Below the pieces are notes generated by a model. The model did not search any database and was not told where the DNA came from. It saw nothing but the letters and a program-made list of their open reading frames with translations. From positions 70,276 to 134,275 of the forward strand of contig CAWBKL010000007.1 in NCBI GenBank assembly GCA_963789405.1: a stretch of 64,000 nucleotides of DNA. The letters are read 5' to 3'. Below are positions 43,855-46,952 of the stretch, in pieces. This stretch comes from an uncultured Alphaproteobacteria bacterium (GTDB lineage: Bacteria > Pseudomonadota > Alphaproteobacteria > CAWBKL01). A program made the position numbers and the translations under genes. Each line of letters begins with the position of its first letter. Position 1 is the stretch's first letter.

Positions 43855-43876
43855 CGAAATCTACTCTGACCCCAAT
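43855..43876 (+). repeat. Left 22-bp inverted repeat flanking the retron
   Basis: CGAAATCTACTCTGACCCCAAT is the reverse complement of 46931-46952 with one mismatch. Confidence 0.88.
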
Positions 43877-43934
43877 ATCCCTTTCATCGTCGCTAGAAGG
43901 CAGGAGTTCGGCTTCTATTGAGATAGGGGTGCGC

Positions 43935-44244
43935 CTACACTGCACCCGCCGCGACGAGTTTGTTGTGAAAGTTGATTGTTGCGACAATCCGATCAAGCAA
44001 TGGAACGAAACCGGTGAAGTTGATTTTGTCCGCGTTGGGAGCAACCACTTGACTAGCGAATCTGCTCTTTCCGTACTCCGTGTCAGTGTCTACGTCTTTG
44101 TCGTCAGGATTGAACGATTTTCCATTGAGCTTCATTGACCGCGTCGCCACGTCAAACAGGCTCTCTATCTTTGACTGCCCCGCGTTCTCCGGCGTCTTTA
44201 TCAAATACAGGTTCCGAGCTATTTGATAAAAGGGAGCATTACTA
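43935..44244 (-). pseudogene. C-terminal remnant of retron RT-TOPRIM, detached by IS630
   Basis: ...SNAPFYQIARNLYLIKTP...IESLF...FNP...YGKSRFA...FTGF..LL joins in frame to the 45297-46707 part when the IS is removed. Confidence 0.88.
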
Positions 44245-45296
44245 GAGCCGATTCAATTTAATCACGGTCATATCCGGCGGCGGCAAAGTAGTTTTGGCAA
44301 TCGGTTGGCGTGAAGGCGTCGATTGCGACGGCGATAGCCTGCCAGAGATCTGGCACCGTGCGCGCGGCGGCTTTGCGTAAGGTCGCCTTGAGTTTCGAGA
44401 AGGCCATTTCGATTGGGTTGAAGTCAGGTGAGTAGGGCGGAAGATAGAGAAGCTCAGCGCCCGCCGCTTCGATCGCCTCTCGCACGCCCCTCACTTTGTG
44501 TGCGGGCAGATTGTCCATCACGACGATATCGCCAAGCTTGAGTTCCGGAACGAGAACCTGCTCAACGTAGGCGAGGAAAGCTGCTCCATACATCGGCCCG
44601 TCGAGGATCATGGGCGCGGCCAGGACATTGAGGCGCAGAGCACCGGTGAAGGTCGTCGTCTTCCAATGACCGTGCGGGATCGAGGCGCGACAGCGCTCGC
44701 CTTTTGGTGCGCGGCCTCTCAAGCGCGCCATCTTGGTCGAGGCACCGGTCTCGTCAATGAAGACGAGCTTCTCTGGATCAAGATCGAGTTGGCCCTCGAA
44801 CCACGCGGTCCGCGCAGCTTTTACGTCCGCGCGCTGTTGCTCGCTCGCGTGCGCTGTCTTTTTTTGAACGTGTAGCCGCGCTTGTCGAAGAAGTACCAGA
44901 TCGTCGCCGGGCACGCCGAGACGCCGCGTTTCTCTGACAGGAGTTCGGCGATCTCGGCAAGCGCGATGTCCTTGGTCGCTGCGACGAGGCCGAGGATGAA
45001 GTCTTCGTGAGCGTCGAGCTTAGAGCGTTTCGGTTGACCTTGGTGGCCTGGCCGCACGTCCCCCGTCTTGCGCCACAACCGGTGCCAGGCTCCAGCGGTC
45101 GCAATCCCGATGGCAAACCGACGTGCCGCCTCGCGGCTCGACAAGCCGCCATCGATTGCTTTCACAACCCGCCGCCGCAAATCCAAGCTGTAAGCTCGCG
45201 CCATCATCCTCTCCTCCCGCAAATCGCAAAGGAAAAGGAATCAGCATTCGCCAGATCAGGGAATCCCAGCCAACTCGGCTTTCACTGAAACCGCTC
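44245..45296 (-). mobile_element. IS630-family insertion sequence (about 1052 bp)
   Basis: Flanking TA (within CTAG) at 44243-44244 and 45297-45298; imperfect terminal IRs GAGCCGATTCA / GAGCGGTTTCA; encodes HTH and DDE ORFs. Confidence 0.93.
44258..45204 (-). CDS. IS630 transposase, two ORFs joined at an A7 slippery site (programmed frameshift)
   Basis: orf[15 protein letters not shown]...TFKK; orfB FIDETG...MDNLPAHK...[27 protein letters not shown] on minus strand at about 44858-44865. Confidence 0.92.
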
Positions 45297-46707
45297 TAGT
45301 GTGCGAGACAGACGTGTGCTTTGCGGCGTTGAACACATTGTTGGACCCCGAATCGTTGTCAACGAGCAGAATCACAGGGTGGTTTAGCGGAGCGTGCTTG
45401 TAGCGCTTAAGTGCGTCCCCGTATCGGCTCATGAAAGCCGGGAAGTGACCTGTCCCACCACCTAAGCCCAACACATCGCGGGTCGTGTCGGTGTACTTGA
45501 AGAATTGAACCGCAATGTGCTTCTGGCCATTGACCACATTGAACAGGGCGCCTGCATATGCATTCAGATTTTTTATTGCCGCGTTGAGATAGACGCTGTC
45601 CGTCTTTCCTTCGCAGATGACGAGAGGTTTTTCTGGGATCACGAATTTTTGGAAAAACAGGAAGCGATAGTAGAGCCTCTCGATGCCTTCATGGTTCTTG
45701 GGTGCGGTGGCTTCGTATTTCTTCGGAGTCTCAAGCGATGTCCGTACCTTCTCTAGCCGCTTGATGTAGTAAATATGGCTGAGAATGCCGCCTAGCTGGT
45801 TCAGCGTCCCCTTTTCGTTTGGTGAGTTACCGTGAAGGTGGAACTCGCCTGACCTAAAGAGGGCATCGCAAGCGAGTCTGGCCGATCTATAGTAGTCGGA
45901 TCGAATATTGACCTTCTCGTTGACAGTGAGACCGGTAACGACTTGGCGGCTTCCTCGATATTGCATTCGAGTTTTTCGGTGATTGACCGAAAACCCTGCG
46001 CGGTTGATCTGTTCCAAAAGGTCGTCGCCTAGGACCCACACGGAACTGCTCGCCGCTAACTGGTATGCAATTGGTGAAGGAAATGACTTCTGGTTCGTTG
46101 AGAAGCTCAGATCGTCGGCATACCTCGAATAGGTGCACTTATATTTCTTCGCGAGCTGACTCAGACGCACGTCCAGCAGATGGCCGAGCAGGTCAGATAT
46201 GATTGGGGAGCAAGGGCTCCCTTGTGGGAGGGCCGTCCCATCGCACGCAATCTGAGCAATGACTGTTGCGACGCTCGGATGTAGCAGGAAGTCGTTGTTC
46301 TTTATGAAGTAGCCCCGCACGCGTCCGAAATTCAAAGTCGGAAAAAAATCTTCCAAGTCTAGATTTAACAAATAGCGTCGCTTGCGATGTTGATAAGCGT
46401 TCGTGGAAATCGAGGCGCCACTGCGGAATCCATGTGAGACGATCTTTCGTGGGGTCTTCTCTTCGATTTCGGCTCGACAATCCGTCAATAAATTGGCGAG
46501 CGATCGCTGTAGAGCTTTCAAACGGTCTATTGGCGCGGTGATGTCGCGAGTTCCCCCGCCCTTTTTCGGTATTGAAAAGAACGTGTATCGCTGCTGTAGC
46601 GGAATTTTATAGAGGGTGTAGGACAACGCGCTTGCTGGAATATCCAATAGAGGCGCAAGCTCTTTAAGAGATGAAGCGTTCTGGAGTGCTGTTAGAAAGG
46701 AGGCCAT
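45256..46707 (-). CDS. Retron Ec67-type reverse transcriptase-TOPRIM fusion, truncated by IS630
   Basis: IPKKGGG.R.I.AP, NA..H (region X), DLEDFF, LPQGSPCSP, YADD, VTGL (region Y); TOPRIM ICEGKTD and LVDND. The last ~12 aa come from the IS. Confidence 0.93.
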   Translation of the reverse strand: MASFLTALQNASSLKELAPLLDIPASALSYTLYKIPLQQRYTFFSIPKKGGGTRDITAPIDRLKALQRSLANLLTDCRAEIEEKTPRKIVSHGFRSGASISTNAYQHRKRRYLLNLDLEDFFPTLNFGRVRGYFIKNNDFLLHPSVATVIAQIACDGTALPQGSPCSPIISDLLGHLLDVRLSQLAKKYKCTYSRYADDLSFSTNQKSFPSPIAYQLAASSSVWVLGDDLLEQINRAGFSVNHRKTRMQYRGSRQVVTGLTVNEKVNIRSDYYRSARLACDALFRSGEFHLHGNSPNEKGTLNQLGGILSHIYYIKRLEKVRTSLETPKKYEATAPKNHEGIERLYYRFLFFQKFVIPEKPLVICEGKTDSVYLNAAIKNLNAYAGALFNVVNGQKHIAVQFFKYTDTTRDVLGLGGGTGHFPAFMSRYGDALKRYKHAPLNHPVILLVDNDSGSNNVFNAAKHTSVSHTRAVSVKAELAGIP

Positions 46708-46720
46708 GTGTTGCGTGAAA

Positions 46721-46865
46721 TGGAGAGGGAGCCTGCAGGTACTCCTACGCGTGCTAGGGTGTCGGGCTAGTCGAAGCCCGGCCTGGTTAGGAAGCTGTCG
46801 TTCTCTGACTTTGTTTTCTTATATTGCGATTGCGCAACAACAAATCTACCTGGAGGACCTCTCCA
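46721..46865 (-). ncRNA. Retron msr-msd non-coding RNA (Ec67-like)
   Basis: Imperfect a1/a2 inverted repeats TGGAGAGGTCCTCCAGGTA ... TACCTGCAGGCTCCCTCTCCA; candidate branching G then ATTTGTTG...AATCGCAA, as I recall for Ec67 msr; msd hairpin CGGGCT-TCGACT-AGCCCG; ends 13 nt before the RT ATG. Confidence 0.85.
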
Positions 46866-46930
46866 GCATTGTGTTCTGATTTCTTGCTGGAGATTAGTCA
46901 AGGCGCGATCTGAAAATTATCAAAAAGAGG

Positions 46931-46952
46931 ATTGGGGTCAGAGTAAATTTCG
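46931..46952 (-). repeat. Right 22-bp inverted repeat flanking the retron
   Basis: ATTGGGGTCAGAGTAAATTTCG pairs with 43855-43876; a third partial copy TTGGGTCAGAGTAA lies at about 47129-47142. Confidence 0.88.

Follow-up and report, generated by a model that had tools for sequence, protein, structure and literature searches.

Orphan TIRtron terminal repeats at the borders of an imported retron in an uncultured alphaproteobacterium

Introduction

RAYT-like genes, relatives of the repetitive extragenic palindrome (REP)-associated tyrosine transposases (RAYTs), that carry terminal inverted repeats were named TIRYTs in 2013 and the elements that they form TIRtrons (Di Nocera et al., 2013, PMC3733652); the repeats are described there as sharing a common motif, GGGGWSAS, and as occurring in single, dimeric and grouped copies. 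In the classification of Quentin et al. (2018, PMC6006769), most TIRYTs belong to TnpA_REP subclass 2.1, which has a C-terminal helix-turn-helix (HTH), and for some RAYT groups the flanking words are reported to be just modestly repeated (Bertels et al., 2017, PMC5581495). Since being named, TIRYTs and their repeats have received hardly any study. Here we describe a locus on contig CAWBKL010000007.1 of an uncultured Alphaproteobacteria bacterium (assembly GCA_963789405.1), within a stretch of 64,000 nucleotides (nt) referred to below as the window, in which two 22-nt repeats of this family lie on either side of a retron. The analysis firmly establishes that these orphan TIRtron ends mark the borders of an imported retron that is now dead. 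The repeat family, its transposase and the retron type are already known; new are the tip-to-tip placement of orphan TIRtron ends around a defence gene in a genome without the enzyme and the few parallels found elsewhere.

Defence genes are known to travel with integrons, Tn7-like elements and satellites and to gather in hot spots. In composite transposons, mobile insertion cassettes and miniature inverted-repeat transposable elements, the transposase can come in trans. A first-pass annotation of the window, made from the sequence alone, had described the retron as a candidate non-autonomous cassette packaged between 22-bp inverted repeats, which may be mobilised in trans and swap defence genes at fixed chromosomal spots. 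If it is true that such repeats delimit horizontally moved units, an HUH-based route would be added to those by which defence genes travel, and the units could easily be recognised in sequence data by their repeats. In any case, the locus gives a firm annotation to an otherwise unexplained inverted repeat, is a worked example of orphan TIRtron ends bordering foreign DNA and forms, together with its parallels, a small set of loci suited to testing the idea of mobility. In the literature searched, no link of TIRYT repeats to cargo genes or retrons was found (the repeat lists that accompany the TIRYT papers may include the present subtype), and a search for the motif string returned eukaryotic primer sequences only.

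Identity of the repeats

The assembly (G000) comprises 4,106,051 bases in nine contigs, with the window on the 207-kb contig C7; a sister species (G001), whose assembly is fragmented, is the sole other genome of the genus that was compared. The bracketing inverted repeats reported in the first-pass annotation are real. The two arms agree at 21 of 22 positions (95% complementary), both contain the GGGGWSAS-type string GGGGTCAG and two matches were observed against 0.00 expected from 100 shuffles. The 12-mer core GGGGTCAGAGTA occurs twice in the whole assembly (reversed control, 0), and allowing up to five substitutions in the 22-mer adds merely two marginal matches, both with five mismatches. 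With two copies in 4.1 Mb, the motif is not so common that bracketing would be expected by chance, a doubt raised together with the original claim, and its identification as a common REP-like motif was rejected. The 21-mer of the repeat is absent from the sister species, a BLAST search of the repeat against plasmids gave no match and a scan of viral contigs gave 0 matches. A Tn3-family end, considered on account of the GGGG tips, was set aside, as the similarity of the arms ends after about 22-30 nt and the link to RAYTs accounts for the repeat; we know of no resemblance to Xer/dif-like modules or integron attC sites.

The exact 22-mer was found in three unrelated contigs of a metagenome collection (L027, L028 and L029) and near-exact copies in two of 400 other genomes of the class (G240 and G320; one genome in the reversed control). 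In G240, two copies with their GGGG tips outward (L030/L034) enclose an open reading frame (ORF) of 113 residues that corresponds to the C-terminal half of a 238-residue PF01797 (Y1_Tnp) family; a search with this ORF gave 323 matches at E <= 0.001 among 2697 candidates, some of them named REP-associated tyrosine transposase. Relatives of this protein at E <= 1e-20 are present in 18 of the 61 genomes of the order of G240. At the full-length loci of G412 (L035), G447 (L036) and G413 (L037), the motif is located 50-70 nt upstream of the start codon and again over the stop codon, forming an inverted pair whose GGGG tips point away from the 238-residue PF01797 gene. The proteins of this family end in ...KRQ(L/I)NLL and the repeat DNA consists of those codons plus the stop. 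G240 is unpublished and was the source of the first clue only; the conclusion rests on G412, G413 and G447 without it.

The motif is present, at 1-6 copies per genome, in all seven genomes with a transposase match of at least 63% identity and in 3 of 54 others (reversed control, 0). Alignment of 35 copies, 34 of them with a readable tail, gives a conserved stretch of about 25 nt, GARAATY-GGGGTCAGAGTA-RATTT. A second repeat type ('A type') flanks a transposase subfamily of 42-46% identity, often as short tandem runs (L046, L047 and L053).

The way in which the motif flanks the transposase genes matches the published TIRYT description, and the link to HUH/RAYT terminal repeats proposed in the first-pass annotation is therefore right; the Y1 gene with the same repeats that it had suggested looking for exists in other Alphaproteobacteria, with none in this genome. 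Further points of agreement with TIRtrons as described (PMC3733652; PMC6006769) are the GGGGWSAS motif, the overlap of the downstream copy with the 3' end of the gene and the occurrence of the repeat families as single, doubled or clustered copies at low copy number. Thus, the two 22-nt repeats in the window can firmly be identified as orphan TIRtron terminal inverted repeats of the GGGGWSAS type. They differ from the described elements in that the pair in the window has its tips inward around a retron and an insertion sequence (IS) of the IS630 family, with no transposase between the repeats or in the genome. REPIN-RAYT systems (Bertels & Rainey, 2011; PMC5581495) also combine a Y1 HUH transposase with short flanking repeats, and non-autonomous doublets occur here too (L029 and G435), whereas REPINs are described as abundant, vertically inherited hairpin doublets without cargo and the present repeat is sporadic, at 2-6 copies per genome. 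A diverged form of the repeat is present in G417 (L060, contig C7, 4405-4490) as three to four direct tandem copies within 90 nt, a layout that corresponds to the 'grouped' arrangement reported for TIR families.

The enzyme is missing from the genome as assembled: PF01797 has 0 matches in G000 and the P0001 search likewise found none. No Y1 transposase was found in G001 (94% complete) or in G320. The genome contains 11 matches to PF00589 and five to PF00239, none of them on contig C7, and examination of G001 contigs revealed no integrase on these either. The statement in the first-pass annotation that the window contains no recognisable integrase, recombinase or HUH transposase accordingly holds for the whole contig, which has no match to PF00589, PF00239 or PF01797.

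Orientation of the repeats

A transposase-bearing element consists of a forward copy, the gene and a reverse copy, with the tips outward, as in L035 and L037 [(+) then (-)]. The retron is preceded by a reverse copy and followed by a forward copy [(-) then (+)], with the tips inward, and no strand flip turns the one order into the other. Tight pairs without cargo have the arrangement of the element: among second-type pairs no more than 210 nt apart, as counted from their coordinates, six are tail-to-tail and one is tip-to-tip, and L029 is a tight tail-to-tail doublet of the first type between two convergent housekeeping-type ORFs (tex and gatB by eye). Since the orientation at the retron is the reverse of that of both the transposase elements and the empty doublets, the retron sits where DNA between two elements would, and it is not a passenger inside one TIRtron element.

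Other pairs share this tip-to-tip geometry. In L028, a pair of the same subtype encloses a 570-bp cargo of unknown family with a G+C content (GC) of 0.53, compared with 0.573 in the flanks. At the equivalent site in G001 (see below), the cargo between a tip-to-tip pair of the second type has a GC of 0.539 and its flanks 0.589. Elsewhere in the genome under study (L075; contig C1, 8040-8790), the values for a tip-to-tip pair are 0.49 and 0.57-0.59; this segment consists of reverse copies of both repeat types, about 500 bp with a 96-residue membrane-like ORF and two forward second-type copies, and its ORFs have no family match in PADLOC. A related arrangement is present in G456 (L044), where a gene of 221 residues (GC 0.543 versus 0.609) lies between two decaying tandem transposase copies, the inner repeats of which face the gene.

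Placing cargo between transposon-end repeats is a property shared with composite transposons, mobile insertion cassettes and miniature inverted-repeat elements, and the G456 gene between its two decaying element copies is an example; the window differs in lacking outer ends, a target duplication and repeated copies, so that the inner-end geometry alone survives. Finally, L027 contains a single copy, the tip of which truncates an OLD/PtuA/GajA-like ATPase after the Walker A region. The notion that the motif forms the coding tail of cargo genes (...LGSE-stop) was rejected, as this is true in L027 only and the real coding overlap is with the C-terminus of the transposase.

The retron and its insertion sequence

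The retron is of the RT-Toprim type I-C, the type of retron Ec67/Eco2, with a single gene and a non-coding region upstream of it. The PADLOC RT-Toprim_I-C model matches 45256-46707(-) with an E value of 6e-186 (model positions 7-456 of 552) and 43935-44204(-) over the remaining positions listed in Table 1, so that it is fully covered; Pfam reports RVT_1 alone (E 1e-18) and the Ec67 protein in the PDB matches with an E value of 1e-110. The gene is not intact as it stands, being split by an IS with the DDE_3 transposase, IS630-type HTH and TA duplication of the IS630 family. In-silico removal of 1057 nt (the IS and one TA) restores a single ORF of 571 residues, and the IS is therefore the only lesion of the retron gene. 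From inverted repeat to inverted repeat the interval spans 3098 bp, which falls to 2041 bp once the IS and one TA are subtracted, in agreement with the retron content of about 2.0 kb given in the first-pass annotation. Further copies of the IS are present on contigs C3 and C5 (99-100% identical), C2 (partial) and C8 (84%), and the way in which its two ORFs overlap resembles a frameshift arrangement.

The upstream region contains several hairpins and a candidate a1/a2 pair (8 nt, inverted; 46858-46865 and 46721-46728), and its fold z-score of -1.56 is unremarkable. No retron RNA family of Rfam matched between 42000 and 49000 at E <= 1. The window thus differs from Ec67/Eco2 in its interrupted gene, in a non-coding RNA (ncRNA) that is placed by position without an Rfam match and in the distance of its reverse transcriptase (RT), the closest RT in the species genomes searched being 54% identical. 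The retron DNA has a GC of 0.508 compared with about 0.605 in both flanks, and the low-GC stretch coincides with the repeat-bounded interval. None of nine loci with homologous RT-Toprim genes (38-54% identity) contains the motif, which was rejected as a part of the retron itself on these grounds. The retron is thus an Ec67-like type I-C retron of low GC, horizontally acquired and now dead, and is in itself ordinary. Two Vibrionaceae genomes contain a homologous RT-Toprim retron (41% identity) that lies between copies of another inverted repeat, of about 13 nt, GTTAAGTGGCTA (L021, 4788-4800 and 6878-6890; L023, 1934-1946 and 4024-4036), and the homology between the two loci starts exactly at the left copy.

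The ALDH 3' site

The left repeat lies 11 nt from the stop codon of an aldehyde dehydrogenase (ALDH) gene, a site that in G001 has the same frame and different cargo. The first-pass annotation had proposed aligning the ALDH-peroxiredoxin interval across strains to see whether the breakpoints fall at the repeats, and they do so on one side: the two genomes diverge after the ALDH stop and about 10 shared nt, no more than about 3 nt from the left repeat, whereas on the right homology resumes at the third, diverged copy of the repeat (47125-47131) instead of the right arm. A comparison of TIRtron borders in the genus of G412 showed conservation of the right flank alone, with homology starting again about 270 nt past the repeat. 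The ALDH gene lacks one C near 43737 (43730-43745; GGAAAACAG here versus GGAAAACCAG in the aligned G001 gene), so that the ORF continues into the left repeat; together with the marker completeness of 65%, this may reflect indel errors instead of a real pseudogene or missing DNA.

The first-pass annotation lacks one further feature: the ALDH 3' end is directly repeated at both borders of a longer interval, which makes the larger inserted unit one of 3476 bp. From left to right, this unit comprises the left repeat, the retron, the right repeat, 173 nt with the start of a GFA-family gene, the third copy, an extragenic repeat and the ALDH fragment; a solo 'A type' repeat just past the ALDH fragment is the last item of the series. 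In G001, the cargo at the ALDH site is an ORF of 146 residues of unknown family between second-type repeats, and two extra ALDH 3' fragments share their first nucleotide, which lies about 160 nt from the stop. Their common left edge suggests a fixed attachment (att) site. Two of the G001 contigs (L004 and L016) were provisionally joined through a 30-nt overlap inside a repeat. Counting the gene and the two fragments of about 160 nt, G001 has three ALDH 3' copies (L004, L016 and L015), each near repeats and with different cargo, namely the 146-residue ORF and an alpha/beta hydrolase with a YjbR-like ORF; these copies have the appearance of a tandem array at an att-like site. Direct repetition of the 3' end of the target at both borders, and fragments with a fixed edge, are as in integrative islands at the 3' ends of genes and in cis-mobilisable remnants that lack an integrase; in contrast to the islands, contig C7 has no integrase.

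Origin of the locus

From the identity and geometry of the repeats, the foreign composition of the retron, its IS lesion and the absence of the enzyme, all of which are direct observations, we infer that the retron was most likely captured between TIRtron ends in a donor, transferred together with the inner repeats and integrated at the ALDH 3' hot spot through the repeated ALDH segment, a history to which we assign a probability of about one half. The donor, which would have possessed the transposase, would have contained the retron between two TIRtron copies or doublets; the retron would then have moved as the stretch between the repeats, with an inner repeat at each end, and been inserted at a recombination hot spot that the ALDH 3' direct repeat marks. 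The IS630-family element split it later. What remains in this genome is a fossil, with a broken retron, no Y1 transposase and no integrase nearby. The repeats mark imported DNA and do not demonstrate a working mobile cassette.

Several points weigh against capture in a donor. The searches found neither a donor of the retron nor a second copy or close homologue (the best RT is 54% identical and the motif is present at 0 of 9 homologous loci), and derivation of bare 22-mers from two flanking elements needs two tidy deletions, with the left arm as close to the ALDH stop codon as it is. Tip-to-tip pairs arise trivially between neighbouring repeats and are also found around ordinary DNA: the pair in L059 encloses an amidohydrolase-like gene with an ordinary GC of 0.631, and two tip-to-tip segments of G435 (6 and 13 kb) have the GC of their own genome and contain host genes. 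A rule that tip-to-tip pairs denote foreign cargo was rejected on these three examples, and orientation alone therefore proves nothing; the sample of tip-to-tip cargoes is in addition small and was not drawn blind. Furthermore, G000 is 65% complete by marker genes, so that a transposase could be present in the unassembled part.

A rather unlikely alternative is that the retron arrived by another route, such as site-specific integration or homologous exchange at the att-like repeat of the ALDH 3' end, as a small island that had lost its integrase or been mobilised in trans, and that the 22-nt repeats are incidental solo repeats belonging to the island or to the site. Such an arrival agrees with the direct repeats that flank the whole 3476-bp interval, with the single nucleotide at which both G001 fragments begin, about 160 nt from the stop, and with the presence of other cargo at the same site in G001. 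The tRNA-Ser gene 0.8 kb away and the crowding of this spot, where repeats of two TIRYT subfamilies, an extragenic repeat, an IS and a truncated gene are found together, point in the same direction. The lack of an integrase on the 207-kb contig and on the G001 contigs examined speaks against it, as does the fact that the genome has no more than two full copies of the repeat and that these stand exactly at the low-GC edges, which is unexpected if they are incidental. Integration at the ALDH site accounts well for the arrival and leaves the inverted pair unexplained; it is compatible with the integration step of the donor-capture history.

The claim of the first-pass annotation, in which the repeats are the functional ends of a non-autonomous cassette and a TIRYT acting in trans excises and inserts the repeat-retron-repeat unit, appears unlikely. 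One route would be cutting at the tips, whereby the inter-repeat DNA leaves as a circle and enters an abutted end-to-end junction. By inference from the IS608 mechanism, in which the Y1 enzyme treats the ends of an element and those of its flank alike, such a reaction is chemically plausible. Favourable to the claim are the membership of the repeats in a Y1 HUH transposase family, their being a pair of one subtype (21/22) exactly at the edges of the foreign DNA, the same-subtype pair around a different, 570-bp cargo in L028 and the coincidence of tips with three gene truncations (GFA here, the ATPase in L027 and the transposase in L030), as active or once-active ends would produce. The orientation, in contrast, is the reverse of that of every transposase-bearing element seen and of the six tight empty doublets (versus one tip-to-tip). 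There is no target duplication or conserved target beside the ends, the outer flanks (...AGTCC and TCTTT...) sharing no direct repeat; neither an empty site nor a circle junction was found, and the genome contains no second copy of the repeat-retron-repeat module, so that every direct sign of mobility is lacking. Both G000 and G001 lack the transposase, the right-hand breakpoint against G001 falls away from the right repeat and no published test of TIRYTs moving anything was found in the literature searched. The cassette claim is thus sustained in its HUH-type repeats, their position at the low-GC edges and the left breakpoint, and finds no support in the inward tips, the missing target duplication, empty site and second copy, and the right breakpoint at the third copy. 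The accompanying proposal of defence-gene swapping is likewise not supported: the defence genes concerned are one dead retron and one truncated ATPase, the other cargoes being without known function.

More speculatively, tip-to-tip TIRtron ends might serve as docking or exchange sites, at which a TIRYT would cut at the tips and release or take up the DNA between the ends as a single-stranded circle; abutted ends would then act as an integron-like platform that moves small accessory or defence modules, here a retron, from genome to genome. We regard this as improbable. On the same improbable premise, orphan repeat-cargo-repeat units would persist after loss of the enzyme.

A chance repeat, or recombination sites of an invertible (phase-variable) segment such as the inverted repeats of 20-30 nt that flank invertible segments elsewhere, can be dismissed as very improbable, given a chance expectation of 0.00, the recurrence of the identical 22-mer in unrelated organisms and its association with a transposase family, the absence of a tyrosine or serine recombinase from the contig and the lack of an obvious effect of flipping a whole retron.

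Features of the locus

The features of the locus are collected in Table 1. The third, partial copy of the repeat that the first-pass annotation described as truncating a GFA gene is real and adjoins the Pfam-supported fragment.

Table 1. Features of the retron locus in window coordinates.
Feature	Position	Strand	Evidence or remark
Aldehyde dehydrogenase (ALDH) gene	42508..43843	+	Pfam Aldedh, E 2e-81; last ~36 codons out of frame
ALDH 3' end, direct repeat copy a (att-like)	43747..43843	+	Aligned with four other copies
Left 22-nt repeat, TIRtron-type terminal repeat	43855..43876	-	GGGG tip at 43873, towards retron
Retron RT-Toprim gene, C-terminal (Toprim) part	43935..44241	-	PADLOC positions 470-550/552, E 1e-20; frame continuity
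IS630-family insertion sequence, TA at both ends	44242..45300	-	Pfam DDE_3, E 3e-35; HTH_Tnp_IS630
Retron RT-Toprim gene, N-terminal (reverse transcriptase) part	45301..46707	-	RVT_1, PADLOC and Ec67 matches
Putative promoter and msr-msd ncRNA region	46708..46930	-	Assigned by position only
Right 22-nt repeat, TIRtron-type terminal repeat	46931..46952	+	GGGG tip at 46934, towards retron
173-nt segment specific to this genome	46953..47125	+	GC 0.647 (host-like); absent from G001
GFA-family gene fragment, 41 codons	47004-47126	+	First ~36 codons of gene; Pfam GFA, E 7e-5, profile positions 3-32/115
Third, diverged repeat copy	47125..47142	+	16/18 match; tip truncates GFA fragment; orthologous copies in sister species
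Common genome-wide extragenic repeat, GC-rich hairpin type	47162..47219		Unrelated to 22-mer; ~30 short BLAST hits across contigs
ALDH 3' end, direct repeat copy b, decayed fragment	47226..47319	+	91% identical to copy a over 69 nt
Solo terminal repeat, second TIRYT subfamily ('A type')	47322..47347	+	Motif also flanks transposases in L046, L047 and L053
tRNA-Ser(CGA)	48130..48219	-	Downstream of peroxiredoxin gene (ORF 47366-48052)

In G320 (L032, 929-1520), a solo copy of the repeat precedes an intact GFA-family gene by 145 nt and adjoins an ORF that, from a reading of its translation by eye only, resembles an IS1595-type transposase. The presence of a GFA gene near the repeat both there and in the window may be a coincidence, GFA paralogues being common.

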